Shown here: piece after piece, positions 5,565-31,959 of the stretch
Numbering within the stretch: position 1 is the first letter of the stretch
Layout: each line of letters opens with the position of its first letter
Source of the DNA: Pyrodictium abyssi
GTDB taxonomy: Archaea; Thermoproteota; Thermoprotei_A; Sulfolobales; Pyrodictiaceae
DNA length: 32,000 bases
Direction of reading: 5' to 3'
Assembly: GCF_036323395.1 (NCBI RefSeq)
Contig: NZ_AP028907.1
Coordinates: 1,920,001 to 1,952,000, forward strand
Made by a program: the position numbers and the translations under genes
Notes under the pieces: generated by a model
Database searches by the model: none
Seen by the model: only the letters and a program-made list of their open reading frames with translations
Told to the model about the DNA's origin: nothing

Positions 5565-5750
5565 ACTCCAACCCCAACCCGCCCGGAAGCACCAGCTTCC
5601 CTCTTTAAAGGGAACTCCTCCTTTAGCTACCTTGGATGCCAAGAGAGTTTGAGCCTAGGAAGGCTGCATCCCTTGCAATGGGTCCCGGGGGGCAACATCA
5701 CGTTCTGATAGAAGAGTGCAGTGAGGTTGGGGGAAGGCCCGCAGCTGGGG

Positions 5751-5814: not shown

Positions 5815-6708
5815 TCAAGCGTCGAGGATCCGGTTCACGAGGGGTTCTAGGGCGGGGCGGTACCATTTCTCGTAGATGTGGAGTATGTCTGCCTTGTTGT
5901 AGTGTTCCTCGAATACGTCTCTGGGGGCGTGCCCCTGGAGCAGCTTTATCGCCCACTTGGGTGTGCCGTGTAGTGCTAGCGCGGTTGCGAAGGCACGGCG
6001 GAAGTCGTAGACCGTGACCAGTGGCTCGTCCTCCCTCTGTACGCTGTGCAGCGTCTCGCGTAGCTTCGAGTAGCTCGGCGGCCTGACGCCTAGGCTCGCC
6101 GCGGCCTCGAGGCGGCTGTAGAGCCGCTCCGTCAGCAGCGTGGCGTAGGCCCTCTTAGTGGCCCGGTCGTCGAAGAGCCTGAGGCCCGGCACGGCCCCGA
6201 AGTGCCTCACGAGGCTCCTGGGCATGGCCCTCCACGCGGCGTAGGCCTCGGACGGGCGTAGGCCTGTCGCCAGCAGCAGCGCCAGGAAGACGCGGTAGTT
6301 GCTCGGCCGGAGCCGGGCAGCCCTTGCCGCCACCTCGACCACGCGCTCCACGAACTCCGGGTCACCCAGTACCTCGAGGGCGAGGCTCCGCGGGTTGCCG
6401 CCGGCCAGCCGCCTCCTCCGCAGCATTGCTGAGACCCATAGCCGCTTCTCCTCCCACTCATCCAGCAGCCCGAGGTACTCGGCTAGCCAGCCCAGCGCAG
6501 CGAGGACCTTCTCGCGCTTAGCCCTGCTCAGCGTCCGGACCTCGACGAGAACCCGTCGCCGGTCCTCGAAGAGCAGCCTCCAGTACCCCTGCTTCATAGT
6601 GTAGCGCATATAGTCCTCGACACGCTTACGGCTAAGCCCCATACCCTCCAGATACGCCCGGAACCCCTCCCAGTCTATGCTAACCATTTTCTGGCCCGCG
6701 GCTCTCAT
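5815..6708 (-). CDS. int: tyrosine recombinase / integrase
   Basis: 297 aa with motifs ATGLRPSEA (Arg I), YDFRRAFATALALHG (Arg II region) and LLQGHAPRDVFEEHY (His...catalytic Tyr). The stop TGA (5815-5817) lies about 10 nt from the tRNA-like segment. ATG 6687 (MVSIDWEGF) is an alternative start. Confidence 0.85.
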   Translation of the reverse strand: MRAAGQKMVSIDWEGFRAYLEGMGLSRKRVEDYMRYTMKQGYWRLLFEDRRRVLVEVRTLSRAKREKVLAALGWLAEYLGLLDEWEEKRLWVSAMLRRRRLAGGNPRSLALEVLGDPEFVERVVEVAARAARLRPSNYRVFLALLLATGLRPSEAYAAWRAMPRSLVRHFGAVPGLRLFDDRATKRAYATLLTERLYSRLEAAASLGVRPPSYSKLRETLHSVQREDEPLVTVYDFRRAFATALALHGTPKWAIKLLQGHAPRDVFEEHYNKADILHIYEKWYRPALEPLVNRILDA

Positions 6709-10784: not shown

Positions 10785-10793
10785 GAGCCACCC

Positions 10794-10836
10794 CTTCTCC
10801 CGGCTTCTCCGGGTAGACTGGGGAGCCCGGGAGAAG
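10794..10836. promoter_or_regulatory. inverted repeat in the divergent pilus promoter region
   Basis: CTTCTCCCGG (10794-10803) and CCGGGAGAAG (10827-10836) are exact reverse complements. A near-copy CTTCTCCGGG sits at 10804-10813. A GGAGG Shine-Dalgarno sequence precedes ATG 10850. Confidence 0.45.
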
Positions 10837-10849
10837 GAGGCGCGACACC

Positions 10850-11170
10850 ATGCGCGCATTATCCGAGCTCTACGCGGCGATACTGCTCTTTGCGGCCAGT
10901 GTAGCCGTCGCTGGCATGCTCTACAGCTACGTGGAGGCACACATCCCTAGGCATGAGCCGCCGCGCCCCGTGCGCGTTCTCGAGCTCAACGAGACCCACG
11001 TAGTCTGCTACACACCGTTCACGGTGAACCTCACCTACTGGCAGACAGTGGGAAGCTTCAGCTGCTGGCTGGTGCCAAACATTTCTAGCAGCGCGCTGGA
11101 CCCGTGTCCCCCCGTCCTCGAGCCAGGCACCTACATCCTCGTGAGCCCTCCATGGCTCTGCAGCCCTTGA
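10850..11170 (+). CDS. small pilin-like protein (class III signal peptide)
   Basis: The N-terminus MRALSELYAAILLFAASVAVAGMLYSYV resembles an archaeal type IV prepilin. It is preceded by GGAGG and lies directly upstream of the pilus ATPase. Confidence 0.5.
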   Translation: MRALSELYAAILLFAASVAVAGMLYSYVEAHIPRHEPPRPVRVLELNETHVVCYTPFTVNLTYWQTVGSFSCWLVPNISSSALDPCPPVLEPGTYILVSPPWLCSP

Positions 11171-11184
11171 AGGAGGCGAGGGCG

Positions 11185-14617: not shown

Positions 14618-14625
14618 TGGGGCAG

Positions 14626-14634
14626 TATTATAAG
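14626..14634 (+). promoter_or_regulatory. TATA-box-like element
   Basis: TATTATAAG lies about 30 nt upstream of GTG 14661, consistent with a leaderless or short-leader transcript. Confidence 0.35.
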
Positions 14635-14660
14635 CCATTCAAACCCGTTTTCAAATCCTC

Positions 14661-15590
14661 GTGGGTTATGTACGGAAAGCTCAACAGGTCATACCTCCTG
14701 TCTGGATGCATGGGCTGCCTACATTGGCTGCCAGCGTAACTAGGACCCGGCAGCGGTATGGCGCAGAGCTAGCGCTGGACCTGCTACTAGCCGAGGCTCT
14801 GGGCAAGGGCTACAGGGTAGACGAGGAGGCGGAGCAGTACCGCCGGCTCATAGTCGCTGGGCTGGAGAGGCTAGGGGTGAAGCGCTACAGGGAGGCAACC
14901 GAGCTAGCATACGCCACGGCTTGGCTCATAGACGGCGAGTGCCGGGTCGACGACGGGCGCGGAGCCGACCTACGCGCGCTCGCAGCCGCTGCAGTGTACT
15001 GGGCTTGGCTCGTAGAGCATTCACGGGGGCTCCTCGGCAGGCCCGTGGCCCAGAGGGCATGGGAGCTGGTGGGTAGCAGTAGGGCCAGTTTCTACAGGGC
15101 GATAAGGATATGGAGCGAGTGCTTGCTGGGGCTCGGCAGCCATCATGCACTGCTACGGGGAGAGGCTAGGAGCCTAGTGTTCTCGGGTGTCGCCGCTAGC
15201 TATCCCGGCTACTTCATAGCCGCCCTGAGGGGCTATACTCCCGTGGCGGCGGGCTTTCATAGGCTCCGGCTGGGGCGGCTGCGCCCTGTGGAGCTGCTCC
15301 TTCTCCCCCACGGGGATAACACGCGGAGGACGGGAGCCGTGAACGGCAGGATGACTGTCACGTTTGACCTGGAGAGGCTATACAGCCTATTGAGGATGAG
15401 CTTCGACTATCAGCCCTTCTCGGCCCAGGACTTTGCCCGTATCCTAGCGCTCCACTACCCTAGCGCTGTCCAGGTGCTGAAGAAGCTTGAGACGCTGGGC
15501 ATAGTGGAGCGTATAGGCGAGGGCGTCTGGCGGCTCCGGGAGAAACCCATACAGGAGCCTATGTATCCAGCCCATGGAGGCAGGCTTTAG
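14661..15590 (+). CDS. putative transcription regulator with C-terminal winged helix
   Basis: 309 aa. The C-terminal FSAQDFARILALHYPSAVQVLKKLETLGIVERIGEGVWRL is a typical wHTH. The central helical repeat (ADLRALAAAAVYWAWLVEH...RASFYRAIRIW) is faintly cyclin/TFB-like, which is inference only. Confidence 0.5.
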   Translation: MGYVRKAQQVIPPVWMHGLPTLAASVTRTRQRYGAELALDLLLAEALGKGYRVDEEAEQYRRLIVAGLERLGVKRYREATELAYATAWLIDGECRVDDGRGADLRALAAAAVYWAWLVEHSRGLLGRPVAQRAWELVGSSRASFYRAIRIWSECLLGLGSHHALLRGEARSLVFSGVAASYPGYFIAALRGYTPVAAGFHRLRLGRLRPVELLLLPHGDNTRRTGAVNGRMTVTFDLERLYSLLRMSFDYQPFSAQDFARILALHYPSAVQVLKKLETLGIVERIGEGVWRLREKPIQEPMYPAHGGRL

Positions 15591-15616
15591 AGCCAGCGTC
15601 ATCGGCTACGCGGTCC

Positions 15617-15624
15617 TATAAATG
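15617..15624 (+). promoter_or_regulatory. TATA-box-like element upstream of the pilin gene
   Basis: CCTATAAATG lies about 160 nt upstream of ATG 15782. A GGGGTGA Shine-Dalgarno sequence sits just before the ATG. Confidence 0.3.
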
Positions 15625-15781
15625 TTTTACCATCTTGCCGCTCAAGTAGATGCCCCATGGGCGCATCTCTCCTCCCCCGCGCCTCCTACATCCTCCGCCG
15701 CAGCTAGCCCACCCACTCCCCGCCGTTTCTCCCGCCACGAGGCTAGCAACGTGAAGAAGCCAGAAGGGGTGAGCAGAGGGT

Positions 15782-16186
15782 ATGCCCCGCAGACTCCGTG
15801 GCCTGAGCCCCCTCGTGGCATCGGCTATCCTCTTGGCGGCCGTGCTAGCCGTTGGCGCAGTCATATACAGCTATGTGCACACAAGCACAGCAGCGGTAGT
15901 GGAGAAGCCGCAGCTCATGATAACAGCGGACGCAGACTACGTGGGTTCGACGGCCTACGTGGAGATAAGCATAACGAATAGCGGTGGGGCAGCGGCCAAC
16001 ATAACAGACGTGACCATAGACGGGCAGAGCGTCAAGAGCCAGCTATTCAGCGGGAGCTACTACCTGCTGAAGCCCGGCAAGGAGCTACACAAGGTCGTCG
16101 AGCTATCAAACCTCCCCAGCGGCGAGCACATCATAATAGTGACGCTAGCCGACGGCACAGAGTTCAAGTCCAAGTTCACCAGCTAG
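15782..16186 (+). CDS. archaeal type IV pilin (class III signal peptide, DUF361-like)
   Basis: MPRRLRGLSPLVASAILLAAVLAVGAVIYSYV matches the canonical archaeal prepilin N-terminus (KG-[IL]SPV[IV]A...). The rest is a small beta-sandwich-like domain. An oligo-T run at 16197-16201 follows the stop. Confidence 0.75.
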   Translation: MPRRLRGLSPLVASAILLAAVLAVGAVIYSYVHTSTAAVVEKPQLMITADADYVGSTAYVEISITNSGGAAANITDVTIDGQSVKSQLFSGSYYLLKPGKELHKVVELSNLPSGEHIIIVTLADGTEFKSKFTS

Positions 16187-16553: not shown

Positions 16554-17081
16554 GTGCCCCGCCTAGTCTCGGTTTTTAGCATCCCGGACCTCGGCTGGCT
16601 GGAGGAGCCGATAGCGTACCGGTTCGGCGTGGCTATCCGCGTCCGCCACCTCCTGGGGGTGTTCGCCGGCGTCTTCGCTCTCGTGGCGGGCGCGCCGCTC
16701 GAGGCAGCCGCAGCGGTGGCTGGCGCCGGGTTGGTGCTGGGAGCGCTCCCCGTGAAGCCGCCGCTGGGCAAGATGCTTGCCCGCCGCGAGCCCCCGAGGG
16801 AGACTGTCTACTGGGCGCCTATGGGCAGCATACTGGTCTACGTGGTCGTCGAGGAGCCCGGGGAGCTAGTGGTGCTCGTAGACGGGAGGGAGCACGACAG
16901 GCTCCGCGCATCCCCCGGCGTAGCCCGGCTGGAGGTGGCCGGCCTAGAGCCGGGCGAGCACACCATACGCGTCGTGGCCGGCCGGGTTCTCCGGGAGCTG
17001 CGAGTCCTCTCGGGAGAGCCCCGTGCCCAGCCAAAAGAAGCAGGGGCGAGAACAGGGGCGGGACAAAGGAGGGAAGCCTAG
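16554..17081 (+). CDS. small membrane protein in the VirB3 position, with a C-terminal beta-rich domain
   Basis: GTG start 7 nt after the upstream stop. It has a hydrophobic hairpin HLLGVFAGVFALVAGAPLEAAAAVAGAGLVLGAL followed by a beta-strand-rich region (GEHTIRVV). The assignment is positional only. Confidence 0.4.
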   Translation: MPRLVSVFSIPDLGWLEEPIAYRFGVAIRVRHLLGVFAGVFALVAGAPLEAAAAVAGAGLVLGALPVKPPLGKMLARREPPRETVYWAPMGSILVYVVVEEPGELVVLVDGREHDRLRASPGVARLEVAGLEPGEHTIRVVAGRVLRELRVLSGEPRAQPKEAGARTGAGQRREA

Positions 17082-18891
17082 GCCCCGCGAGCCCGGCCTC
17101 ATTTTGCAGGTTAATGGCTACCCCTTCGCCGCGCTGCCCGAGAAGGAGAGGGACCGGTTTCTATCCAAGTGGACAGCGCTACTCAACGCCGCCGCGGGCA
17201 GAGCCCGGGTAAGCGTCTACGCCATGTGGGACGCTGTGGAGGGGTTCCGGTTCCGGCGGCTACTGTTCTTCACAGAGGGCCTCGACCCCGGCCTCCTGGC
17301 CCAGCTCGGCTACGAGCCGAGGCCGGCAGCGGAGCCCTACAGGCCTAGGCCCGTGAAGGCTACGAGAGGGCTTCTCGAGCTGGAGGACGGCAGCTACGCT
17401 AGAGCGTACACCGTTATGAGGCTGCCTGACTCGCTGCCGGAGGCATGGCCCCTAGAGCTCGGCTACGCTGCTGACGAGGTCCACCTGCTCCTGGAGCCCG
17501 TGGAGCCCGCCCGGGCGCGGGGGATGCTCGACCGGAAGCTCTCGATGCTCATGAGCGCGCAGCAGGGCAGCGTTACATGGCAGCTGGAGAGCGAGGCCTA
17601 CCGGCTGCAGCAGCTACAGCAGCTCCTAGGCGGCAAGGCCCGGCTCGTAAAGATAGCCATCGTGATCATTGTGAGGGGCTCCAGCCTCGGGGAGGTCCGT
17701 GAGAGGGCTAGGAGGCTCGAGGAGCTCCTATCCTCGAGGATGGTGGAGTACGCTTCGGGGCCCGGGTTCTACCAGCGCCGCCTCTACAACCTCGAATGGA
17801 CAGTACCAGTGTTCCACTACATCGATACTCTGAGTGCGCAGGCGCTGTACCCGCTGGTGCAGGAGCAGCTGGCCGACTTCGGCGGCTTCTATCTCGGCTA
17901 CGACCTCGACACGGGGGAGCCCGTGGTCTACAACCCCTACGCCCGGCCCAACTACAACGTCGTGGTGCTGGGCGAGAGCGGCTCCGGGAAGAGCATGACC
18001 CTGAAGGTCTACGTCCGGCGCTGGTGGGCCGCCGGGCTGGGCCAGCAGGTCATAATCGTAGACCCTGAGGGCGAGTACGTGGGGATACGAGAGTACCTGG
18101 CGACCGGCCTCGCCGGCTACGAGCTCAGCAAGGACGCTGCGGAGGAGCGGGGCGGCCTCGGCCTAGACCCCGTCAAGCTATACCGGCGGGGAGTCATTGG
18201 CCTCGACGAGGCTGTCGACGTAGTGCAGGAGTTCTACCGTGTCCCCGACGAACTCCGGGGCGAGCTGGTGGAGGCTGTCTCGGAGTCCGAGAGCGTCCTC
18301 GGCGCCGCCAGGCTGGCAGAGGAGAGGGGCACGGGGCTGGAGAGGTACCTGAAGGCCGCCGGGGCCGACTCATGGATATACGAGGGGGAGCCCCCGCTGC
18401 CCACAGGCCGCGGCGCTGTCTACACCCTCGCTGGCATTAGGTCCCGTAGGGCCCGTGCACTAGTAGGAGCGCTTCTAGCGCTCGTGGTGTCCTCGAGGCT
18501 CCGCAACTCGTTGCTAGTAGTAGATGAGGGATGGATGTTCGCACAGTACCCAGCGCTAATGGCAATGTTCGCCGACATAGCGAGGAGAGGCCGCAAGAGG
18601 GGCGTAAACTTCGTGTTCGCCAGCCAGCGGCCGCACGATGTCCTCCGCTCGGAGCACGGCAGGACAATCCTAGAGCAGTCGGCCACCGTGCTTCTACTAC
18701 GCTTGAACGAGGCCTCCCTGGAGGCGGTCAAGCCCATCTATAATCTCAGCGAGGCCGAGGAGGAGCAGCTCCTCGACGCCGAGCCCGGCCAAGGCATCCT
18801 ACGGGTAGCCGGCGGGTGGAGGCTCCGGGTCTACGTGCAGCCCACGCCGGAGGAGCTCCGCGTCTTCAGCACCCGGCCCGGTGAGTGGTAG
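17023..18891 (+). CDS. VirB4/TrbE/CedB-like conjugation ATPase
   Basis: Walker A GESGSGKS (17971-17994), Walker B LLVVDEGWMF (a DE[AG]W type as in VirB4) and FVFASQRP. About 620 aa. The start is uncertain: GTG 17023 overlaps the upstream gene by 59 nt, and TTG 17104 is the alternative. Confidence 0.8.
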   Translation: MPSQKKQGREQGRDKGGKPRPREPGLILQVNGYPFAALPEKERDRFLSKWTALLNAAAGRARVSVYAMWDAVEGFRFRRLLFFTEGLDPGLLAQLGYEPRPAAEPYRPRPVKATRGLLELEDGSYARAYTVMRLPDSLPEAWPLELGYAADEVHLLLEPVEPARARGMLDRKLSMLMSAQQGSVTWQLESEAYRLQQLQQLLGGKARLVKIAIVIIVRGSSLGEVRERARRLEELLSSRMVEYASGPGFYQRRLYNLEWTVPVFHYIDTLSAQALYPLVQEQLADFGGFYLGYDLDTGEPVVYNPYARPNYNVVVLGESGSGKSMTLKVYVRRWWAAGLGQQVIIVDPEGEYVGIREYLATGLAGYELSKDAAEERGGLGLDPVKLYRRGVIGLDEAVDVVQEFYRVPDELRGELVEAVSESESVLGAARLAEERGTGLERYLKAAGADSWIYEGEPPLPTGRGAVYTLAGIRSRRARALVGALLALVVSSRLRNSLLVVDEGWMFAQYPALMAMFADIARRGRKRGVNFVFASQRPHDVLRSEHGRTILEQSATVLLLRLNEASLEAVKPIYNLSEAEEEQLLDAEPGQGILRVAGGWRLRVYVQPTPEELRVFSTRPGEW

Positions 18892-21427: not shown

Positions 21428-23752
21428 ATGGGGAGAGCTAGGGCCTCGAGGAGGCTCTGGAGGCTGGGTGCCGCTGGGCTGCTGCTGGCTGGCCTAGCGC
21501 TGCCGCTACTCGCCATAGCCGCTGGCGCCGTGGAGTACCACGACTCCGTGCTGGGGTATAGCGGGGAGGGGGAGCCTGTTGAGCCGCTCCAGAGGCTAGG
21601 CTACGCCTTCGCCACGATACTGGTCTTCATCGGCGGCATTGCCTACGCGCTGGGCCGCTCGGATATCGCGAAGAGCAGCTGGGCGTGGGCAGTAACGGTG
21701 GCAGTCATAGTGGCATGGGTTTCGAGCTATAGTAGCGGGCTGCCCGGCGCCGCCGGAGAGGCCATGGTGTTCTGTCCCCCGGGGCAGTTCTACAAGGACG
21801 TGCCCGCTACGGTTGTGGTGGCGAGGCCAGGCGCCGAGGTCAGTGCCACCATTGACTGGGGCGACGGGAGCACTAGCAGCTGTTCTGGCCAAGGCTACTG
21901 CGTGGCCAGCCACGCGTACAGCGGGGAAGGGCTCTACACGATACGGGTCTCCGGTACCGCTAGCGCCCAGTGCGGTGTCGAGGTAAGGAGCCTGGGGAGC
22001 CTGCTGGAGGAGGGGTTCTCGGGGCTAGAGGCGGACTGCGGCTGGAGCCCGACCTCGTGGCCGGGCTGCATCATGGTGAACGCCGCGAAGGCTGTTGGGA
22101 AGGCCTTCGCGCTGCTGAGCGACGCTGTGGTATGGTTCTTCGCCCACAGCGGCGCCGGCGGCGTCTTCGAGAAGGTCGGGCTGATGCTCGTCACCGTGCC
22201 TGAGTCGGCGCCGCCACTCCTCGACACCCATGTCTACGCGTTGTTCCTCCTAGGCTACGCTGTGGCGGGCCTCGCTCTCTGGAGAGCGTTCTGGGAGTTC
22301 GAGAAGGGGCTGTCATGGCTGGATGCTCTCCGGGACGTAGCGTTCGTGCTGCTGGCGCTCAGCCTCGCGCAGCCGGTGTACACGTGGGCCGCCAGGCTAG
22401 TCAATAGCATGAGCATAGCCATGGCGCAGCCGGGCGTGCTGATGGCGTGGATGGCTATGCTGCTGGCCGTCACGGCTCTCGCGGCTGCGCTCCCCGTGGG
22501 CGGGGCCGGGGGCCTAGCGGCTGCCGGGGCGCTGGGCTTCGCTGGCTTCATCCTAGTAGCGCTGCTGAAGTACCTGCTGCTGGAGGCCATGTACCTGCTG
22601 CTGCCCCTCGTGGCGGTGCTCTGGCTCTTCCCCGGCACAAGGAGCGTCGCCCGGAGCATGACAAACATAGTCGTGGCGCTCATGGCGTGGAACCTAGTCC
22701 TAGCCGCGATGGTAGGGCTCTCCGCCAGGGCCCTGGCAGAGCCGGCCAGCGCCTCGCCCCTAGAGGTCATAGGCTACGGGGTAGCTCTCCCCCTGGCAAT
22801 GCTCGCCACAGGGCCCATGATAGGAGGCCTATTCGGCGCCCCACTCCCCGGGGCCGGCTTCTTCGCCGGCATGTGGGGCCGCGCCGCCGGCTTCGTGGCG
22901 ACCAGGCTAGGAGTGGCGCCACCCCAGCCACGAGCAGCACTAATGGTGGCACCAGGAGCCGTGGTAGGCCACACCGAGTACCTCCGCCCACCGACGCCAG
23001 CGATGCCGGCGCCGGGCACAACAGTAGCAGCCGGCGGAGCCCCCATAGCCTACGGCACCGCGGGGCCACCATCGCCAGCTCCGGCAAGAACCGACTGGCT
23101 CCGGCCGGCAGCAGGCCCAGGCCAGGCATGGGCCGGGCCCGAGGCAGTGTCAGGCATGGTGAGGAGGGTAGAGGAGCTCGGTAAGGGGCATGTAGGGTAT
23201 GAGGTCTCAGGCAGGGTGCCCGGGAGCCTCGAGCGCCGCTTCGCCGAGGAGGCGGCCCGGGATGCCGGCGCAGCGCTCGAGAAGCCGGGGCCGCGCGTTG
23301 AGGAGGTGCCACCAGCGACTAGGAGGATAAAGCAAGCAGCCAAGGAGGCGGCTCTTGGGCCTGTAAAGGCCGCAGCCAGGCCCCTGGCAAGAGAGTACAG
23401 GGCGATTAAGCAAGCAGTATCAGAGGTCGAGGGAGGCCGGGCAGCCAAGGCCGCCGCGCTAGGCGGCGCCGTCGCCGCCCGCCTCCACGCCTACATGTCC
23501 AATAGAGCAAGGCAGTTCATACGCGAGTTCTCAAGAGCGTTTGAGGCCCAGACCGGCATCATGGTGCCGACAAAACTCAAGCAGCTACAGTCCATCGAGT
23601 GGCAGCGCATCGAGGAGAGGATACGCACCGGAGCAGAAGCAGGCGCCATAGTCGGGCAAACTATGTACATGCGGATAAAGAAGCCCTTTGAGCGTTCGGA
23701 GCAGATAGTTAAGGCCTCTAGTGGGCGCAGCAGTGTCTACATGTACGGCTAA
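21428..23752 (+). CDS. polytopic membrane protein with PKD-like ectodomain (VirB6/TrbL/CedA-like candidate)
   Basis: 774 aa. It has a signal/TM segment and a PKD-type motif (IDWGDGSTSS...ASHAYSGEGLYTIRVSG). At least 8 hydrophobic helices follow, then a Pro/Ala-rich segment and a charged C-terminal tail. The VirB6-like call rests on topology and context only. Confidence 0.55.
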   Translation: MGRARASRRLWRLGAAGLLLAGLALPLLAIAAGAVEYHDSVLGYSGEGEPVEPLQRLGYAFATILVFIGGIAYALGRSDIAKSSWAWAVTVAVIVAWVSSYSSGLPGAAGEAMVFCPPGQFYKDVPATVVVARPGAEVSATIDWGDGSTSSCSGQGYCVASHAYSGEGLYTIRVSGTASAQCGVEVRSLGSLLEEGFSGLEADCGWSPTSWPGCIMVNAAKAVGKAFALLSDAVVWFFAHSGAGGVFEKVGLMLVTVPESAPPLLDTHVYALFLLGYAVAGLALWRAFWEFEKGLSWLDALRDVAFVLLALSLAQPVYTWAARLVNSMSIAMAQPGVLMAWMAMLLAVTALAAALPVGGAGGLAAAGALGFAGFILVALLKYLLLEAMYLLLPLVAVLWLFPGTRSVARSMTNIVVALMAWNLVLAAMVGLSARALAEPASASPLEVIGYGVALPLAMLATGPMIGGLFGAPLPGAGFFAGMWGRAAGFVATRLGVAPPQPRAALMVAPGAVVGHTEYLRPPTPAMPAPGTTVAAGGAPIAYGTAGPPSPAPARTDWLRPAAGPGQAWAGPEAVSGMVRRVEELGKGHVGYEVSGRVPGSLERRFAEEAARDAGAALEKPGPRVEEVPPATRRIKQAAKEAALGPVKAAARPLAREYRAIKQAVSEVEGGRAAKAAALGGAVAARLHAYMSNRARQFIREFSRAFEAQTGIMVPTKLKQLQSIEWQRIEERIRTGAEAGAIVGQTMYMRIKKPFERSEQIVKASSGRSSVYMYG

Positions 23753-24462
23753 ATCATGAGGCCTAGGGCGCGTAGTATTGCGAGGCCTATGAAGGCCCGC
23801 TGAGGTAGCTCGTCTAGCGCTTTTTTCGCCTCCTCCTTGCTTATCTCGCCCTTCTGCACAGCCTCAGCCAGGCCACGTCTCCATAGGTCGTCGGCGTAGC
23901 AGGCCGCGGCTGTTCTCGCTATGTCGTATGCTGTCCTGGTGCCATTGGCTAGCTCTAGGAGCATACATTCTAGGGCGCGAGCAAGGAAGCGGCGGCCATC
24001 GCGGGCCTCGATAAGGCAGCGGTATGGGGCAATGTTGTATTCATCGTAACCTGTCAGGGTAATGGGCTCGTCGAGCCAGCGAAAAGAGGCTAGGGGCCGC
24101 GGCTTCCATGTGTCAGCGTTAGTCTGTATCCAGTCAATGTCTAGTGGTGGGTGGCTGTGCATGTAGTCGTCGAGACCGCTGGGCAGTAACAGGTAGTCAT
24201 TGTGGCGCTTGAAGGGGAAGTTCTTCATTGTGTCGCGGGCCACAATGTAGAGGTCATCGCCTATCTTGCGCCAAAATAACTTGATTTCACCCTTGGCGAT
24301 ACGTTCCTCGGCGGCCCTCCATGCCGGGCTCTTCTGCATTAGCTTGAGGCGCTCTCTTGCTTCGGGTGTCAAGTTCTTCTCCATTTCCTTGGCTTGTCGT
24401 TCTAGCTCCTTTGCAAGCTCTTCAGCAAAGCGTTCCTCCTCACTTTTCTTCTTGAAGAGCAT
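23749..24462 (-). CDS. hypothetical protein (second gene of the RHH operon)
   Basis: ATG 24462 is preceded by GAGGTGA, which overlaps the upstream stop. N-terminal charged helix (EEERFAEELAKELERQAKEMEK). No family recognised. The track ORF extends to 24507. Confidence 0.55.
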   Translation of the reverse strand: MLFKKKSEEERFAEELAKELERQAKEMEKNLTPEARERLKLMQKSPAWRAAEERIAKGEIKLFWRKIGDDLYIVARDTMKNFPFKRHNDYLLLPSGLDDYMHSHPPLDIDWIQTNADTWKPRPLASFRWLDEPITLTGYDEYNIAPYRCLIEARDGRRFLARALECMLLELANGTRTAYDIARTAAACYADDLWRRGLAEAVQKGEISKEEAKKALDELPQRAFIGLAILRALGLMI

Positions 24463-24469
24463 GAGTGAC

Positions 24470-25090
24470 TCACCTCTTGAATAGTGATAGTTGTCTCGCC
24501 TCTTCAATTTTATCTAGTGGTACCAGTATCATGGTCTCTGCTTTGCTTCGGCATGAGTCTTTGTCCTTCATGCACGCTTTCAGGTCCGTTGTGTCTATGC
24601 CCATCTTGTCTAGTATCTCTACGGCTTCCTGCTTCTCCTTGAGTAGCTCGTGCATTTTTTGGGAGGCGTAGTCTATGCAATAGTCGAGGTCTTTGGCGAG
24701 GGTCTCGTACTCGCAGCGCCGTGGATCTAGGCAGTACGACTTATACACGGGTAGTGGGCTTACTGCAAGGATTAGTCTTACCTTGGGCCTCCCGCTGTTC
24801 ATGCCTACTCGGTAGGTGTAGAAGACCAGCGGGTCCGCTGCATGGCCCATGCAAGTGGTTTCGTACAGGTAGTAACCTGGTCTCCGATCTTTGAAGAGGA
24901 GCCTTGAGACCATAGCTTCAACACTTGCCGCCTCACCGAGCACATAGCCTTCCACATACTTGTTAACTAGGTGTTCTACGGCCTCGGCTGCCGAGTTGAG
25001 GCCTTCACGCTGGGCTATCTCTAGGAGCCTATCGAAGATCGGGGCCCTGACGCTCACGCTCCGATAACCACGCCTCTTGGTCTCGGACAC
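24470..25090 (-). CDS. ribbon-helix-helix (CopG-like) domain protein with Cys-rich C-terminal domain
   Basis: The N-terminus RRGYRSVSVRAPIFDRLLEIAQREGLNSAAEAVEHLVNKY follows the beta-alpha-alpha RHH pattern. The C-terminal part of about 150 aa is unassigned. Confidence 0.55.
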   Translation of the reverse strand: MSETKRRGYRSVSVRAPIFDRLLEIAQREGLNSAAEAVEHLVNKYVEGYVLGEAASVEAMVSRLLFKDRRPGYYLYETTCMGHAADPLVFYTYRVGMNSGRPKVRLILAVSPLPVYKSYCLDPRRCEYETLAKDLDYCIDYASQKMHELLKEKQEAVEILDKMGIDTTDLKACMKDKDSCRSKAETMILVPLDKIEEARQLSLFKR

Positions 25091-25363: not shown

Positions 25364-26383
25364 ATGTGGCATAGTATAGGTGAGTTCGTCGAGCACGTCC
25401 TCGAAAGAGGTGCAAGGAAAGTCACTTGCTGGAAGAAGGGATCCGAGGGGTGCCGTGTCGCAAAGGTTAGCGTCGAGCCAAGTCTAGTAGGTGAACGGGT
25501 CTACGTATGGACTGAGAGCGAGGTAGAGGAGCTCCAGCGGAGGATTAAGAGCCTAGACTCTATGCGCCGGTTCTTCATATCGCTGATGAATACCGAGAAG
25601 GGGCGGAAAATGTTCACCATAGTCAGCGAGACGTGGAACCCCGTCACGGGGTGTGACCACAACTGTATCTACTGCTGGGCACGGCAGCTAGCGCTCACGA
25701 AGCTACGACGCGCCCCCCGCTACAGAGAGGGCTTCAGGCCCCGGCTCAACCCCGAGGAGTTCAGGAAGCGGTTCAAAGGCGGCGTAGTCTTCGTAAGCGA
25801 TATGGGCGATCTATGGGGCGAGTGGGTCCCTGATGACTGGATCCGTCGTGTACTAAACCATATAAAGAGATTCCCTAATACATGGTTCCTCTTCCTGACC
25901 AAGAACCCGCAGCGCTACCACGACTTCCTGGACGAGATCCCGCCTAACGCGATACTAGGCGCCACTATCGAGACTAACCGGGACAGCTACTTCCAGGAAG
26001 GCCACAAGCCAAGGATGTCCTCGGCTCCACTGCCTAGCCGCCGCTACAGGGCTATGAAAGAGCTAGACTGGCCTCTCAAGTTCATCTCTATAGAGCCGAT
26101 CCTAGACTTTGACCTGGACGTGTTCACCAGGTGGATCGAGGAGATAAACCCGTTCATGGTCTACATAGGCTACGACAACTACAGCCACAGGCTCCCAGAA
26201 CCCCCGCTAGCTAAGACACGAGAACTTATAAAGCGGCTAGAAGACTTCACACTCGTTATACGGAAAACGATTCGCCCAGCATGGAACGAGACACTCAACA
26301 AGTACACAAGCGGGGTGAAAGAAACTGGGCAAGCAAGGGAGTCAAAGAAAACAGCAGAGGCAGAACAAGCAGCAGCCGTATGA
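25364..26383 (+). CDS. DUF5131 / phage Gp37-Gp68 family protein (three-Cys, radical-SAM-like motif)
   Basis: ETWNPVTGCDHNCIYCWA (CxxxCxxC at 25652-25675), VFVSDMGDLWGEWVPDDWIRRVL and WFLFLTKNPQRY match the PF07505 consensus as I recall it. The conserved domain begins near ATG 25610, so the 82-codon N-terminal extension is uncertain. Confidence 0.7.
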   Translation: MWHSIGEFVEHVLERGARKVTCWKKGSEGCRVAKVSVEPSLVGERVYVWTESEVEELQRRIKSLDSMRRFFISLMNTEKGRKMFTIVSETWNPVTGCDHNCIYCWARQLALTKLRRAPRYREGFRPRLNPEEFRKRFKGGVVFVSDMGDLWGEWVPDDWIRRVLNHIKRFPNTWFLFLTKNPQRYHDFLDEIPPNAILGATIETNRDSYFQEGHKPRMSSAPLPSRRYRAMKELDWPLKFISIEPILDFDLDVFTRWIEEINPFMVYIGYDNYSHRLPEPPLAKTRELIKRLEDFTLVIRKTIRPAWNETLNKYTSGVKETGQARESKKTAEAEQAAAV

Positions 26384-26408
26384 GAGGTTTACACACTACC
26401 TAGGTGTA

Positions 26409-27398
26409 ATGCACAAAAAGGCGCTAGAACTTATGGACAGCCTTCCTGAGAACCAGAAGAACCAGGTCCAAGTCTTCTTTGACAAATACTATCCTACAAA
26501 GGAGCAACACTATTGGAGCGTCACAAAGCTCTTTGCTCACGCCATGTATATACCTATGTTTCTGCAAATAGGGCTCCATAATGTTGCTAAGGGCAAGTTC
26601 TCAAAGCTAGTATACATAGATACGCATTCCGGTCCAGGGCTAGCTAAGATAGGGGGCGATGAACGAGACATAGTCCTAGGGTCAGCTCTCCTAGCTCTAC
26701 ACTGGCCCCGTGTAGTCGCGAGCCAGGTGCCTCAGTTCAAGAACATAGCTAGGGGATTTGACGAACTCCACTTTATTGAGCTAAGCTGGCGCAATACGAA
26801 CATACTGCGTAAGTTCGTTAACAGCTTTACACATGTAAAGGTATATACTGACGACGCTAATCGGAGTCTACCTCGCATACCCGTGGATGAAAGAGCATTG
26901 GTGTATCTCTTTGTCGACCCGTATGGCGAGCTTGATTCGCAACTTAGTTACGACGCGCTAAGCAGCTTCGTTGCCCGCCATAGGGCCGACATAATGATGA
27001 GCGTGTTTGCCTCTCATCTTGCCCGCGGATTCTCCAGCATATCAAGGATAGACCTGCTAAAGGAAAGAGTTGAGCGTATCTTTGGGCCAGGGTTCTGTAC
27101 AAGTACGTGCCCTGGGGCACAGCTTCTTTGCAGTATTGGCGCAGCTACACGCGATGCCGTGCTTGAAGCCTTCAAATGCTTGCTAAGGAAGCTGGGTTAT
27201 CAGAAGGTAGTTGACATTCCGGTCCGCTTTGAGAAGGGCATTCTCTACTACATGGTATTAGCTACAAAAGGGTCTGGAGGCTGGATAGACGGCTACATAG
27301 ATTACATTAGTAACAAAGCGCCAAAAGACTATGAGACGCTGAAAAAGCTCTGGCTACGTGCAACCGGTAGACTTGTTGGCCTCGATAACTTCTTCTAG
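26409..27398 (+). CDS. TcmP-like (three-Cys-motif partner) protein, methyltransferase-like fold candidate
   Basis: 329 aa, immediately downstream of DUF5131, which is the arrangement that defines TcmP. YIDTHSGPG and FVDPYGE resemble the RlmJ-type ETHAGAG / DPPY motifs, from memory. Confidence 0.5.
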   Translation: MHKKALELMDSLPENQKNQVQVFFDKYYPTKEQHYWSVTKLFAHAMYIPMFLQIGLHNVAKGKFSKLVYIDTHSGPGLAKIGGDERDIVLGSALLALHWPRVVASQVPQFKNIARGFDELHFIELSWRNTNILRKFVNSFTHVKVYTDDANRSLPRIPVDERALVYLFVDPYGELDSQLSYDALSSFVARHRADIMMSVFASHLARGFSSISRIDLLKERVERIFGPGFCTSTCPGAQLLCSIGAATRDAVLEAFKCLLRKLGYQKVVDIPVRFEKGILYYMVLATKGSGGWIDGYIDYISNKAPKDYETLKKLWLRATGRLVGLDNFF

Positions 27399-27743: not shown

Positions 27744-28136
27744 TCACTGCTCCCGGGCCTCCTTTCTCTCCTCGACCTTGTTGAGCATCTCCAGTATTGG
27801 CTCGCGTAGCCTCTTGTTCATCACCCATACCCGTTTCCGTGTCCATCCGTAGTAGTGTTGCTCGACGAGGGGCGGGAGGTCTCCCCGCTGCTTGGAGAGC
27901 CTCCGAAGCCAGCTCACGGCCGCCACGTAGTTGTCGTCGCCGACTATCTCCGCGACGCGGCGTGTAGAGACCTTGTTGCCCTCGGCTAGGTAGCGTAGGA
28001 GTCTCCTCTTCCACTCGGGTAGCTCCCGGAGCCACTCCTCCACCTCGACTCGGTCTAGGATGGATTCTCTCCGCCTGGGCACGGCCCAGCCGCCTCCAGG
28101 ACTAGTAGCCGGGCCGGGAGAAGGCCGGAAACGCAT
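27744..28136 (-). CDS. putative HTH/winged-helix DNA-binding protein
   Basis: 130 aa. KRRLLRYLAEGNKVSTRRVAEIVGDDNYVAAVSWLRRL is HTH-like. It lies directly downstream of the iteron-like array. Confidence 0.45.
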   Translation of the reverse strand: MRFRPSPGPATSPGGGWAVPRRRESILDRVEVEEWLRELPEWKRRLLRYLAEGNKVSTRRVAEIVGDDNYVAAVSWLRRLSKQRGDLPPLVEQHYYGWTRKRVWVMNKRLREPILEMLNKVEERKEAREQ

Positions 28137-28282: not shown

Positions 28283-28434
28283 TGCTAGGGAGTGCTAGGC
28301 GGCGCCTGGAGACCTGAGAGAGCCTGGAGGAGCCTCGGGAGGCCTCGAGAGCTGCTAAGAGCTGCTAGGAGAAACACGGGGCCCGGGAAGCTGCTAGGCG
28401 GCCACAAGGGCTGCTAGCCGGTGCTAGGCGGCGC
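28283..28434. repeat. iteron-like array of TGCTAGG motifs
   Basis: TGCTAGG occurs at 28283, 28293, 28363, 28392 and 28422, with variants TGCTAAG at 28353 and TGCTAGC at 28412. The exact 14-mer GTGCTAGGCGGCGC occurs at 28292-28305 and 28421-28434. GCCT(G/C)GAG repeats lie at 28303-28350. Confidence 0.7.
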
Positions 28435-28452: not shown

Positions 28453-31400
28453 CTATACCCAGATTCGGCTTGCTCCGCGGGTTGCGTAGACGCGTCCGGT
28501 GCGGGTTTTCTTTAGCCTGTAGCCGCGGGCTCGTAGCTCGAGTGCTTTCCTGGCTTTGGGTTCTGGGAGGCATACTTCCTCGTGTTCTGGGGTGTCTAGT
28601 TTGACCCAGTAGCAGTTCTGGTCTGGGTCGTATTCGGGTTGCTGTGGGGTTTGCTGGGTCTGGGTGTCTGGTGTCTCGGGTTTCTCTCCCCGTGTCTCTG
28701 CTGGCGCCTCCTCCCGGAGTTCCGGTGCCTCCCCGTGCTCGTGTGCCTGCTCGGTCTCTGGCTCGGGCTCTGTGATCTCTCCGTGCTGCTGGTTGGCCTG
28801 GGCTAGTTGTTCTAGGAGCGTTATCATCTTCTCTAGGAGCTTTGTCTGGTGCTCTTGGAGCTCTAGTAGCCTGTCGAGCTTCTCTTGCTGGGTCTTCTGG
28901 GCTTGTAGGAGGCTCGCTGTGGCCTGGCCCAGGGCTAGTAGGTGCTTGGCCTGGGCCTCTAGGATCTGGTAGAGGTCTCCACCGGGGGCCCCTCGGGGCT
29001 CCCTGGACCCGGGCCGCTGCCCCACGCCCTCGACGCCGGCACCGGCCTCCTCGACGGCCTCCACGCCATCGCCGGTCTCCTCCCCAGCCTCCCCGGACGC
29101 CTCCACCTCAACACCGGCCTCAACGCTGGCATCCGGCTCCTCGACGCCAGCCTCTTCGGTGCCCGGCACCTCTCTGTCGGCCTCGACTGCCTCCTCTACC
29201 TCAGCACCAGCCTCCTCGACGGCCTCCTCCGGCGGCATCACCCTGACCGGCAGCGGCAGCCTACCCTCCACCTTCCCGAGGACCTCGAGCAGCCTAGCCC
29301 GGCACCCCGCCGGCGCCCAGACGTGGACCTCCGCGAAGACGCCCCGCCGGTGCTTCAACAGGTTCCGGGCAGCCTGCTCCGGGTGCGTAGCGAGCTCGTT
29401 GCAGCTCTCAATCTCGACCGCGACACTCTTGTCATAGCGTAGACTCATCGAGGCAGGATCAAACGGGATCGCCACCATGTCTGGCCTGGCGCTGAGGCCC
29501 GGGTCCTGCCTGGCGGGGTAGACAACATAGCCCCTCGAGAAGTAGTGGAGCACCGCCTCCCGGGCCAGCCTGTAGCCCTCCTCGCCCGGCGCAACCTGGT
29601 GGAGTCCCTCGAAGAGCCCCTTGACGTAGCGCACGAGCCACCGGTTGCCCTCCCTACGGGCCTCGATCAGCCCCCGGGCAGCCAAGGCATTACGGGCCTC
29701 ATCCGCCCTATTGCGCGGCAGCCCGAGCCTCACCAAGACGTTGCTCCACAGCTCCTCCCCCGCGCCGCCCCCAGTCGCCTCGTAGACGTGGTAGAGAGTC
29801 CACAGCTCAACACCACTCGGCCGATCCCTAGGGAGATACCTCAGCACAGGGTTAAGCTTCGAGACGATATCCCCCGCCCCGGGCTCCGGGGGCGGCGCGA
29901 AGCGCGGCAGCAGCTCCACCAGCGGCCGGATGTTCCCGAGGCGGCGCCTAGGCGGCGGGTCCATCTTCACAACCGTGGGCGGCGCCGGCGGCTCCCCGAA
30001 GTCCGGCGCAACCGAGACCACCGCCGAGCCGCCCGGAAGCCCGCTGAGAGCCCGCTTGACCTCCTCCGCGAACTCCTTGTCCACGGCAGCGAGCACGTCC
30101 ACGTCGCGGGCGTCGGCTACGGGGAAGAACACCTTCACCAAGGTGTTCGTGAACATGCTCCGCAGAAGCACATCCGGGACCTGCCGCGGGTGCTGGTGAG
30201 CCATCACGAGGACCACGCCATACTTCCTGGCCTCGCTGAGAACCGTGTCCACCACCTCGGGGATAGCCTGCGCCACGTTCTGGAACTCGTCCATAATGAT
30301 GTACACCGGGGTCCGCTTCTTGCCGAGGAGAGCCCGCTCCAGCGCCCAGAACCAGATGCGGAGCACCACCATGGGTATGAGCAGCCTGAGAAACTGCTCC
30401 CCCAGCACCTTCGGCAGCCTCAGTATCAGCAACCCGCCGGGCTGCAGCACGGTGTCGAGGTCCAGAGTTGACTCGGAGGTCATCGCACGGAGCAGCTTAT
30501 TGTTACGGAAAGGCTCCAGCCTCGAGAAGACACCGAAGAAGCTGTCCTCGCTCATGTCCCTTAGGAGTTCGAGCTGGTGGCGCCACTCCGGGTCGTCGAT
30601 CGGCAGGTCTAGCTCCTCGCGGTACAGCGCCACAAAGGTGTCGTAGAGGTCGGCGAGCGTCACCCTGCCGCCGAGCCGGTGGTACATGTAGCGGAGCACG
30701 ACCTGGAGAAGGTACTTGATGCGGACACTCGTCCCGCTTAGCTCCAGCACCTTCTCGAACAGGTCCACCAGGTGGTCCGTGGCTATGTCATAGGCTTGCT
30801 CCCTGTCGCGGAGGCGAGGCGGCTCCAGAGGGTTGAGGCTGGCGAGGAAGGGCCTCTCCCCGTCGTCGGTCTCGTAAACGGGGTCCACTAGCCAGACGCG
30901 CTCGAGGCTAGGCAGCGACTCCAGGATGTCGTAGGAGACGTCGCCGTGGGGGTCGATGAAGACTATAGCAGCGTCGCTCTCCTCCCGGAGCCTCAGAACG
31001 AGGTTCCAGAGGAACGTCGACTTCCCGCTCCGGGTGCGGCCCACCACCCAGGTATGGAGCATCTGGCGCAGGGGAACGCAGTACTCCTTCCCGTCCAGGG
31101 TCTCCCCGAACCGGATACACTTCTCCCGCGGCTTCACCCGCGGCGTTATGCTCGGCAGCTCCCCGCCCCGGGCAAACTCCACGAAAGCTGAGACCTCGTC
31201 CGGTCTCGGCAACCTCACAAGATGCATGAAGCTCTCCTGTGGTATCCACGGGTACTCCTTCTTCGGGGAGAACCGGCCCATGAGGCTCATGGGGTCCCTT
31301 AGCTTGGAGGGGCTCCCCCTCCGGGAGACCTTCACCTTGAGTGCGGGGGTGAAGAGGCCCGCAGCCCTCTCCCCCAGCTCCCTAGCACGCTCCTTATCAT

Positions 31401-31959
31401 TGGTGTAGAACCTGACTGCTGTTATGTAGATGCGCTTGGTGCTCAGCTGGGAGAGGTGCCGGGCCATGTCGGGGTCCTTCTTATGGTACTCCAGGGGGCC
31501 TAGCCCCTTGAGCTCGGGGCGCTCGCCTAGACGGTAGTGCCTGGCCTTCTTGGCCAGCTCCCGGTGGGTCCTCGCATCGTAGAAGCCGACTATCTGCACC
31601 GCCTCGCCGGGCTCCAGCCAGTCGTAGACCGAGAGCCAGGCCTCGCTAGCCTCGACCCCCGTCTCCCAGGCGCCGCTCGGCGCCCTTAGCTCGGCCACCC
31701 ACTTCTGGGGGAGCTCCGGGGGCTCCTCGAGCAGCTCCACGCTCGCCCGGCGCCGCAGCAGCGGCAGCGCAATGTCGCGTATCCACGCGTAGAACTCGAT
31801 GCGGTCCTCGAGCCGGTGAGCCTCCAGCACCACGTGCGGGCTCAGGGAGACCAGCTGGGCGAACTCCCTCTCGTAGCCGAGACGCGGCTTCAGACGAACC
31901 CAGCCCACGTAATGGGTGCCCCCGAGAACCCGGCTCCTCTCAACATCCCTCCTGCCCAA
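28453..31959 (-). CDS. TraG/VirD4-like (HerA-FtsK superfamily) ATPase, putative coupling protein/DNA translocase with multidomain C-terminus
   Basis: 1168 aa. Walker A VVGRTRSGKST (31015-31041), FIDPHGD, Walker B YIIMDEFQNV and VLVMAHQHPRQ. C-terminal parts: wHTH (ALAARGLIEARREGNRWLVRYV), a PD...E-x-E nuclease-like segment, acidic E/A/G/V repeats and a Gln/Leu-rich coiled coil. I see no N-terminal TM helices. Confidence 0.8.
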   Translation of the reverse strand: MGRRDVERSRVLGGTHYVGWVRLKPRLGYEREFAQLVSLSPHVVLEAHRLEDRIEFYAWIRDIALPLLRRRASVELLEEPPELPQKWVAELRAPSGAWETGVEASEAWLSVYDWLEPGEAVQIVGFYDARTHRELAKKARHYRLGERPELKGLGPLEYHKKDPDMARHLSQLSTKRIYITAVRFYTNDKERARELGERAAGLFTPALKVKVSRRGSPSKLRDPMSLMGRFSPKKEYPWIPQESFMHLVRLPRPDEVSAFVEFARGGELPSITPRVKPREKCIRFGETLDGKEYCVPLRQMLHTWVVGRTRSGKSTFLWNLVLRLREESDAAIVFIDPHGDVSYDILESLPSLERVWLVDPVYETDDGERPFLASLNPLEPPRLRDREQAYDIATDHLVDLFEKVLELSGTSVRIKYLLQVVLRYMYHRLGGRVTLADLYDTFVALYREELDLPIDDPEWRHQLELLRDMSEDSFFGVFSRLEPFRNNKLLRAMTSESTLDLDTVLQPGGLLILRLPKVLGEQFLRLLIPMVVLRIWFWALERALLGKKRTPVYIIMDEFQNVAQAIPEVVDTVLSEARKYGVVLVMAHQHPRQVPDVLLRSMFTNTLVKVFFPVADARDVDVLAAVDKEFAEEVKRALSGLPGGSAVVSVAPDFGEPPAPPTVVKMDPPPRRRLGNIRPLVELLPRFAPPPEPGAGDIVSKLNPVLRYLPRDRPSGVELWTLYHVYEATGGGAGEELWSNVLVRLGLPRNRADEARNALAARGLIEARREGNRWLVRYVKGLFEGLHQVAPGEEGYRLAREAVLHYFSRGYVVYPARQDPGLSARPDMVAIPFDPASMSLRYDKSVAVEIESCNELATHPEQAARNLLKHRRGVFAEVHVWAPAGCRARLLEVLGKVEGRLPLPVRVMPPEEAVEEAGAEVEEAVEADREVPGTEEAGVEEPDASVEAGVEVEASGEAGEETGDGVEAVEEAGAGVEGVGQRPGSREPRGAPGGDLYQILEAQAKHLLALGQATASLLQAQKTQQEKLDRLLELQEHQTKLLEKMITLLEQLAQANQQHGEITEPEPETEQAHEHGEAPELREEAPAETRGEKPETPDTQTQQTPQQPEYDPDQNCYWVKLDTPEHEEVCLPEPKARKALELRARGYRLKKTRTGRVYATRGASRIWV

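Follow-up and report, generated by a model that had tools for sequence, protein, structure and literature searches.

Ever since the sequence of pNOB8 became available, it has been an open question how archaeal conjugative plasmids make their DNA ready for transfer. The missing relaxase of these plasmids is long established (PMC9905601, PMC6563490), the archaeal relaxase is still called unknown in reviews to 2025 (PMC12282955, PMC12857230), and the delivery of DNA to the pilus is described as not understood in the reviews of 2023 to 2025 (PMC9905601, PMC12857230, PMC12282955). Across the pNOB8-type plasmids and pT33-3, only the VirB4 and VirD4 homologues resemble proteins of the bacterial type IV secretion system (PMC12857230). 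Both the VirB4- and the VirD4-like genes of the Thermococcus plasmid pT33-3 are required for conjugation (PMC12857230), and traG is required for the transfer of pM164 and for the unidirectional mobilisation of chromosomal markers in the manner of Hfr (high frequency of recombination) donors, which the authors of that work read as transfer starting from a plasmid origin (PMC9899855). Here, we analysed a stretch of 32,000 nucleotides (nt) of the hyperthermophilic crenarchaeon Pyrodictium abyssi (contig NZ_AP028907.1, positions 1,920,001 to 1,952,000), called the window below, which carries the traG/virD4-like gene of an integrative conjugative element (ICE).

The protein family and its lack of a relaxase were known already; what appears to be new is that the C-terminal half of TraG carries, family-wide, a helix-turn-helix of the winged type (wHTH) followed by a domain of nuclease-like fold with a conserved putative active site. 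We found no description of this family-wide module in the accessible literature, and an earlier mention in the key plasmid papers is possible.

TraG of Pyrodictium is a member of the archaeal plasmid family

The traG/virD4-like gene is the longest open reading frame (ORF) of the window by ORF listing and translation, with a TTG start and a GTG at residue 18 (about nt 31908) as another possible start, and its 1168-residue product is laid out as follows.

28453..31959, minus strand: traG/virD4-like gene (ORF, with matches to P0001, pT33-3 and Sulfolobus plasmid TraG)
31120..31959, minus strand: soluble N-terminal region, residues 1-280 (without a transmembrane helix and without a Pfam match)
29890..31119, minus strand: VirD4/HerA/FtsK-type P-loop ATPase core, residues 281-690 (Pfam PF10412, PF12696 and PF01935 above cut-off)
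29605..29868, minus strand: winged helix-turn-helix, residues 698-785 (structure model, Foldseek, MarR_2/TrmB matches in relatives)
29245..29604, minus strand: domain of predicted PD-(D/E)xK-like fold, residues ~786-905 (structure model, Foldseek, column conservation)
29005..29244, minus strand: acidic E/A/G/V low-complexity repeat, residues 906-985 (composition, DNA repeats)
28765..29004, minus strand: Gln/Leu-rich predicted coiled coil, residues 986-1065 (composition, P0001 alignment)
28456..28584, minus strand: basic C-terminal mini-domain, residues 1126-1168, containing RARGYRLKKTRTGRVYATRG (charge; kept in P0001 and P0077)

Identity to the metagenomic relative P0001 reaches 69% across the protein's full length (100%; E=0), while seven other close relatives, mostly of 966-1032 residues, are 34-45% identical and alignable through most of the protein. 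The nearest relatives are sequences of uncultured Pyrodictiaceae, Acidilobaceae and Desulfurococcales at 42-69% identity. On these alignments, the ORF is confirmed as a real gene.

In tblastn searches against plasmids, residues 23-882 were collinear with pT33-3 (1e-125; a 1370-residue protein of NZ_OX281346.1) and residues 13-897 with TraG of a Sulfolobus islandicus plasmid (2e-107, the best among the Sulfolobus conjugative plasmids), and at least 17 Sulfolobales plasmid records, pNOB8 included, had a TraG match among the matches listed. A hidden Markov model of the wHTH and nuclease-like module matched pNOB8 ORF1025 and pT33-3 at ~1e-57 with all motif residues kept. By sequence alignment, the window TraG is thus homologous, and collinear through about residue 895, both to TraG of the pNOB8-type plasmids of Sulfolobus and to the VirD4-like protein of pT33-3, and the gene product is the TraG/VirD4-type coupling and translocation ATPase of the ICE. 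An earlier note, written from the DNA sequence alone, had called it a giant TraG/VirD4-like ATPase; the protein is nothing peculiar, being a typical representative of the TraG family of archaeal conjugative plasmids and not a new kind of protein.

The described members (pNOB8 ORF1025 and the TraG proteins of pING, pKEF9, pARN, pYN01, pAH1, pTC and pM164) and pT33-3 share with the window protein a collinear N-terminal region, ATPase, wHTH and nuclease fold, and share with its locus a neighbouring VirB4/TrbE homologue, an integrase-bearing element and no relaxase alongside. The window protein, however, is only 27-33% identical to them and adds the acidic repeat, the coiled coil and the basic tail, which are common only to its nearest relatives, and its element is integrated and has archaeal type IV pilus genes. 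As compared to bacterial coupling proteins (VirD4, TrwB, TraD/TraG), it belongs to the same P-loop superfamily, matches TrwB_AAD_bind and TraG-D_C above the Pfam cut-offs and is expected to have the same role of a substrate-delivering ATPase next to VirB4, whereas it has no N-terminal transmembrane anchor and no partner relaxase in the window, and has instead a soluble N-terminus of about 280 residues of no known family and the C-terminal wHTH and nuclease fold.

The ATPase motor

Three Pfam families scored above their gathering cut-offs within residues 279-624, namely TrwB_AAD_bind (PF10412; 27.4 bits, cut-off 20.5), TraG-D_C (PF12696; 24.9, cut-off 22) and DUF87 (PF01935; 23.6, cut-off 23.2), while FtsK_SpoIIIE (PF01580) stayed below (22.9 bits vs 24) with a match limited to residues 279-352. 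Walker A (GRTRSGKST, residues 307-315, nt 31015-31041) and Walker B (VYIIMDEF, residues 552-559, nt 30283-30306) are present, and G312, K313, D557 and E558 are invariant in the alignment of close relatives. The HerA/FtsK/VirD4-type P-loop core described in the earlier note was therefore recovered. Outside Pfam, the core shows weak NCBIfam similarity to VirB4, VirD4-like CD1115 and CedD, all far under the curated cut-offs, and weak matches to HerA helicases in a PDB sequence search.

The N-terminal region (residues 1-280) matched no Pfam family when searched in isolation. It is conserved in close relatives and occurs in 34 of the 75 module carriers that bear an ATPase. No transmembrane anchor was found, as the earlier note had also stated: no 19-residue Kyte-Doolittle window reached 1.6, the maximum of 1.57 falls at residues 522-541 inside the ATPase core, and the N-terminus is far lower.

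A winged helix followed by a restriction-endonuclease-like fold

We modelled residues 698-913 with AlphaFold2 (AF2) from an alignment of 43 diverse relatives, and the nuclease-like domain alone (residues 788-913) in a second model. The two-domain model (predicted local distance difference test, pLDDT, 95.5; predicted template-modelling score, pTM, 0.91) has a wHTH of helix-helix-helix-strand-strand order followed by an alpha-beta-beta-beta-alpha-beta-alpha-beta unit, and the domain-only model has the same order for that unit (pLDDT 93.2). Foldseek with the two-domain model returned winged helices only, with ArsR, SqrR and CodY at the top, and Pfam searches of 44 family members gave MarR_2 matches down to 2.6e-9 and TrmB in 18 of the 44. 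The winged helix proposed in the earlier note is secure on this evidence.

With the domain-only model, Foldseek returned PaqCI, MUS81-EME1, YaeQ, EndoMS/NucS, NotI, XPF-ERCC1, BglII and I-Ssp6803I from the PDB, and MmcB-like proteins (E=5.9e-4, template-modelling score 0.56), Mrr, Holliday junction resolvases, PD(D/E)XK and VRR-NUC from a viral library; nearly all of the named neighbours have the restriction-endonuclease fold. Motif placement is canonical, with P826-D827 opening strand 2 and E849-I-E851 on strand 3. The structure models confirm residues ~786-905 as a predicted PD-(D/E)xK-like fold, so the restriction-endonuclease-like assignment came through the structure prediction that the earlier note had named beforehand as its check.

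That note had also drawn a parallel with Hjc for 29305-29577. The fold and the PD...ExE placement bear the parallel out, while the domain extends over about 29245-29604 and no Hjc match was obtained with Pfam at E<=10 on the isolated segment or against the PDB with the family profile; the Lys of the catalytic tetrad is absent, and the likeness to viral Hjc-like proteins is at the level of the fold only (E~1e-2). No sequence family was found for the domain in Pfam (the segment at E<=10 and the 44 members) or NCBIfam, and a PDB profile search with the domain family returned only designed proteins at E>0.1. With Hjc, NucS, VRR-NUC, MmcB, Mrr and type II enzymes it has in common the alpha-beta-beta-beta-alpha-beta core, an Asp that opens strand 2 and, on strand 3, an acidic-x-X triplet. 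It differs from the PD-(D/E)xK nucleases in that motif III reads E849-x-E851, with Glu at the canonical Lys position as already noticed from the sequence, so that the strict (D/E)-x-K motif is not present, and in additional conserved Q, N and K residues on the next helix.

The polar site is nearly invariant throughout the family

A profile of the nuclease segment, searched against 1.84 billion representative proteins, matched 114, of which four were repeat-protein artefacts; the domain is thus rare among representative proteins. Column conservation was counted over 106 aligned copies, some of them only ~20% identical to the window protein.

D827: 105 of 106 copies
E849: 103 of 106 copies
E851: 102 of 106 copies
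K869, on the helix after motif III: 96 of 106 copies
W881: 92 of 106 copies
Q862: 91 of 106 copies
N866: 91 of 106 copies
Q818: 89 of 106 copies

The full conserved site comprises E794, Q818, P826-D827, E849-x-E851-S852, E855, H859, E861-Q862, N866, K869 and W881. Because E851 is kept in nearly all copies, the alignment indicates that Glu at the Lys position is a conserved family variant and not erosion, and we rejected its reading as a sign of an inactive site on the same family-wide conservation of E851 and K869. ExE variants of the PD-(D/E)xK fold can be active, as in BamHI. A single family member, the 196-residue fragment P0089, was seen with the canonical ExK (VEVKPCNE), possibly a natural reversion or a sequencing variant.

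A VirD4-like ATPase is also present in 75 of the 118 proteins that carry the nuclease-fold domain. The remaining carriers are mostly fragments, small proteins of wHTH plus domain, and membrane or coiled-coil fusions. Five proteins (P0131, P0136, P0171, P0182 and P0184) have the module together with N-terminal transmembrane helices and long coiled coils and without an ATPase. Three others (P0108, P0144 and P0179) have it on TraG-like proteins of ~1000 residues with no ATPase match, and in P0108 Walker A appears degenerate by eye. Throughout the TraG family, the architecture is that of a motor, then the wHTH, then the PD-(D/E)xK fold with its near-invariant D...ExE...Q...N..K site.

The earlier note had suggested that DNA recognition and processing are built into this protein. 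This idea is plausible, and it gains strength from the fusion of the module with a VirD4-like ATPase in most of its carriers and from the near-invariance of the polar site. Our best reading, tentative and falling somewhat short of an even chance, is that the wHTH would position TraG, the nuclease fold would nick or cut the DNA and the motor would export it.

The nuclease fold might instead act after or outside initiation, in the resolution of junctions or concatemers, the trimming of DNA in the recipient, exclusion or anti-defence. Holliday junction resolvases, MUS81/XPF, VRR-NUC and repair nucleases of the MmcB type are among its neighbours in structure, and the five membrane-anchored coiled-coil proteins mentioned above have the module without an ATPase, which fits such a role. 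The tight and repeated fusion to a transfer motor and to a sequence-reading wHTH, however, favours a role at the DNA substrate of the motor, and no Hjc, VRR_NUC or NucS sequence family was matched, so we regard action outside initiation as quite improbable.

No separate relaxase in the window

Our preferred reading, in which TraG itself processes the DNA, would leave no need for a relaxase elsewhere. Among the scanned ORFs of the window, which covers the element to nt 32000, Pfam, NCBIfam and PHROGs gave no significant match to a relaxase, HUH, Rep_trans, HD or Replic_Relax family, in agreement with the earlier note, which had recognised no relaxase. The only trace of a relaxase family in the window is PF13814 at E=0.029, below the cut-off, on the wHTH of ORF 8399-8713. 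At a related locus in a metagenome-assembled genome of Pyrodictiaceae (L004, 63% identity), no Rep or relaxase family was found in ~5 kb of element ORFs upstream of traG. The missing separate relaxase would be explained if the roles of relaxase and coupling protein were joined in TraG.

An ORF of 678 residues near the integrase end (8904-10940, minus strand) has one N-terminal transmembrane helix and, by inspection, a large membrane-anchored body; it matched nothing in Pfam, NCBIfam, PHROGs or PDB sequences. We rejected it as a hidden Rep or relaxase on account of the N-terminal helix, its membrane-anchored look and the lack of a family.

A separate relaxase or nickase might lie among other family-less ORFs or beyond nt 32000, with the nuclease fold of TraG as an accessory. 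Room for it exists in the soluble family-less ORFs 14661-15590 (309 residues, with a C-terminal helix-turn-helix), 23749-24507 and 24470-25090 (with an N-terminus resembling a ribbon-helix-helix by eye), and the window ends 41 bp upstream of traG. On the other side, repeated study of complete plasmids of the pNOB8 type and of pT33-3 has turned up no relaxase (PMC9905601, PMC6563490, PMC12857230, PMC12282955), the similarity to bacterial type IV secretion across these plasmids is confined to the VirB4 and VirD4 homologues (PMC12857230), and the stretch upstream of the L004 traG is likewise without such a family. We consider a hidden relaxase unlikely.

Comparison with MOBC relaxases

MOBC relaxases such as TraX of pAD1 and MobC of CloDF13 are wHTH plus PD-(D/E)xK proteins, which bind direct repeats 70-120 bp from nic and for which no covalent intermediate has been seen (PMC12857230). 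Their order of winged helix and then PD-(D/E)xK domain is identical to that in the AF2 model of window residues 698-913. However, they are free-standing proteins of ~200-250 residues, while the module of TraG is the tail of a motor, and motif III reads ExE(S)xxE in the window TraG and ExD(T)GTE in the aligned Replic_Relax-like sequences. Homology to MOBC/Replic_Relax is not supported, as no sequence or profile similarity was detected. NCBIfam gave a single MOBC trace, a match of one family member's wHTH to MobC_subf (E=0.024), and the CloDF13 plasmid record has no annotated MobC, its ORFs looking frameshifted. The likeness is functional and architectural only, and TraG is not filed as MOBC because no sequence or profile homology to Replic_Relax was found.

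It is worth mentioning that P0066, a distant VirD4-like protein of 1144 residues, carries a C-terminal Replic_Relax/MOBC domain at a marginal score (25.5 bits vs a cut-off of 25.3). This protein appears to be a natural fusion of coupling protein and relaxase outside the TraG family, and motor-relaxase fusions thus exist, since its domain is above threshold. Given this fusion and the wHTH plus PD-(D/E)xK makeup of MOBC relaxases, the earlier note had overstated the mechanistic difference from bacterial conjugation.

A repeat array beside traG and the comparison with FtsK and TraB

A short array of direct repeats and a small gene follow traG.

28283..28427, plus strand: TGCTAG(G) direct-repeat array of ~10-bp phase, directly 3' of traG (motif count)
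27744..28136, minus strand: small gene of 130 residues, wHTH-like by eye, just downstream of the array and in the orientation of traG (ORF and translation)

The array holds six exact TGCTAG copies on one strand within 145 bp and one TGCTAA variant, out of 40 TGCTAG copies on both strands of the whole window. Arrays occur at the matching position in two related elements, at locus L002 (~7960-8140) and at L004 (~13430-13600), with a different unit sequence in each: CGTGG-type units in L002, and TAYGGSTGG six times plus GTACGTCTAG twice in L004. A conserved position with differing units is the pattern expected of a binding site that co-evolves with its reader. We treat the array as a candidate cis-acting site that may be linked to TraG, with an origin of transfer (oriT) or clt, an operator and a partition site as candidate roles.

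The protein of 27744-28136, for which neither Pfam nor PHROG gave a family, is just as good a candidate for binding the array; it may serve as an accessory factor that binds DNA, or regulate its own gene. A visibly similar ORF of 117 residues (L004 13675-14028, plus strand; compared by eye) lies at the matching position after the array of L004.

FtsK-gamma reads KOPS, and Streptomyces TraB reads clt repeats. With both, the window TraG shares the layout of a hexameric DNA pump with a C-terminal winged helix. The phased array 3' of the gene may be read by the wHTH of TraG or may belong to the downstream wHTH-like gene. FtsK and TraB, however, lack a nuclease-fold domain and fall within the FtsK clade, while the FtsK_SpoIIIE score of the window protein is under the cut-off and genes for VirB4 and a pilus are present in its element. 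No relaxase is needed by TraB to move plasmid DNA (PMC12282955).

These features bear on the main rival explanation, in which the C-terminal module serves recognition and anchoring only. The wHTH, perhaps with the nuclease fold as a non-catalytic clamp, would load the motor on a specific sequence as in FtsK-gamma and TraB, and the DNA would move as an unprocessed double strand or be processed by the host, for example by HerA-NurA. The order of motor and wHTH, the position of the array next to the 3' end of traG and a motif III without the canonical Lys agree with it; for the plasmids of Sulfolobus, transfer as double strands has been suggested (PMC6563490, citing Greve 2004), as has host HerA-NurA processing for the Ced and Ted systems (PMC9905601). 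Yet three acidic residues plus Q, N and K are near-invariant over very divergent copies, which is typical of a catalytic metal site rather than of a clamp, and inactivated PD-(D/E)xK domains usually lose such residues. The lumens of archaeal mating pili fit single-stranded DNA (PMC9905601), and the FtsK_SpoIIIE match of the motor falls short of its cut-off. Recognition without cutting is unlikely on balance.

How TraG may process DNA for transfer

We return to the preferred reading, in which recognition, cutting and export are joined in TraG. The wHTH would bind a specific site of the element, a candidate being the phased array beside traG. The nuclease-fold domain would then nick or cut nearby DNA in a metal-dependent reaction, and the hexameric motor on the same polypeptide would feed the DNA to the VirB4/pilus apparatus. 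TraG would thereby unite two roles that bacteria give to separate proteins, the coupling protein and a relaxase, of which the non-covalent MOBC type is the most similar.

A more specific form of this reading, possible but somewhat less probable, is that the wHTH and PD-(D/E)xK module is the missing archaeal "relaxase". TraG would bind the array by its own gene as a combined oriT/clt, nick or cut without a covalent intermediate and pump the DNA out, as a convergent or very distant counterpart of MOBC. If true, it would apply to pNOB8-type plasmids, pT33-3 and many ICEs of uncultured hyperthermophiles.

Several points weigh against processing by TraG. The nuclease and transfer-initiation roles of the C-terminal module are predicted only, and its activity is assumed by analogy with ExE enzymes such as BamHI, the canonical catalytic Lys of motif III being replaced by Glu. 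The structural matches are weak in absolute terms (best PDB E 2.6e-3, template-modelling scores of about 0.4-0.56). The hhalign comparison, a weak test against a shallow Replic_Relax-like profile of five sequences (the P0066 C-terminus and only four close relatives), gave a probability of 0.2% (E=0.31), and the 25 Pfam families that the 44 members matched most often at E<=1 did not include PF13814. Haloarchaeal VirD4-like proteins match the ATPase core only in tblastn, so the module is not universal in archaeal conjugation. A cryptic DNA-processing enzyme is possible in the three soluble family-less ORFs named above, and the window covers the element only to nt 32000. The array may instead act as operator for the small wHTH-like gene downstream, or serve in partition or replication.

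Overall, the observation made in the earlier note is confirmed and its interpretation is partly supported. If the module is the processing enzyme, archaeal conjugation would use a fused relaxase and coupling protein of restriction-endonuclease type, which would inform models of the evolution of conjugation and help transfer-based genetic tools for hyperthermophiles. The module is shared with the experimentally tractable pT33-3 (Thermococcus) and pM164 (S. islandicus), and the open question of DNA preparation is thereby made testable.

The C-terminal extensions

The acidic repeats, the Gln/Leu coiled coil and the basic C-terminus that the earlier note had listed were all recovered by composition and charge analysis. 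The acidic repeat (residues 906-985) is 29% Glu with a net charge of -23, is alignable only to the closest relative, P0001, and has the tandem and direct DNA repeats at 29028-29227 as its coding image; a similar Glu-rich stretch is visible in P0073. The Gln/Leu region (residues 986-1065; 20% Leu, 16% Gln) is alignable to P0001, and the basic tail (residues 1126-1168; net charge +8) is conserved in P0001 and P0077. By eye, a C-terminal (V/I)xLxxxxxxxLxxLxxxGY(R/K)(L/I)... element seems to recur at the very end of the window protein, P0001 and P0074-P0077, with otherwise unrelated linkers; P0074-P0076, which show a similar terminal "GY+I/L", are examples of the more distant relatives.

Context of the element

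The left 5 kb of the window are chromosomal, with RpoG, Lsm, archaeosine tRNA-guanine transglycosylase (TGT) and PAC2 genes by Pfam, and the GC content changes from ~50% in this flank to 62-67% inside the element, which carries the following genes of integration and transfer.

5815..6708, minus strand: archaeal-type tyrosine integrase, left end of the integrated element (Pfam Phage_integr_3, 4.7e-7)
17023..18891, plus strand: VirB4/TrbE-like ATPase, partner signature gene (Pfam AAA_10, 1.9e-10; NCBIfam VirB4-type to 1e-28, well under curated cut-offs)

In the window we identified neither a tRNA gene nor an att repeat. The element adjoins archaeosine TGT genes (window 1-5700), and a DUF5591 (arcTGT-type) gene lies at 4532-5302 of L004, ~4.7 kb upstream of the traG there; possibly both elements were inserted in the same neighbourhood.

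Directly upstream of the VirB4-like gene, the region 11104-16186 (plus strand) holds genes of archaeal type IV pilus type, including a FlaI/UpsE-like ATPase and an UpsF-like polytopic membrane protein, and an ORF at 15782-16186 (plus strand) is weakly pilin-like (Pilin_N E=0.004, below the cut-off). The element might assemble a pilus of its own for mating or aggregation. It also has ORFs that carry transmembrane-like segments and weak matches to beta-sandwich domains, and it encodes small DNA-binding proteins.

At 25364-27398 (plus strand), a DUF5131 gene (three-Cys-motif, radical-SAM-like) and its TcmP partner lie in a patch of low GC content (~51-53%) inside the GC-rich element. The pair has the look of acquired cargo and may be a module for DNA modification or defence.

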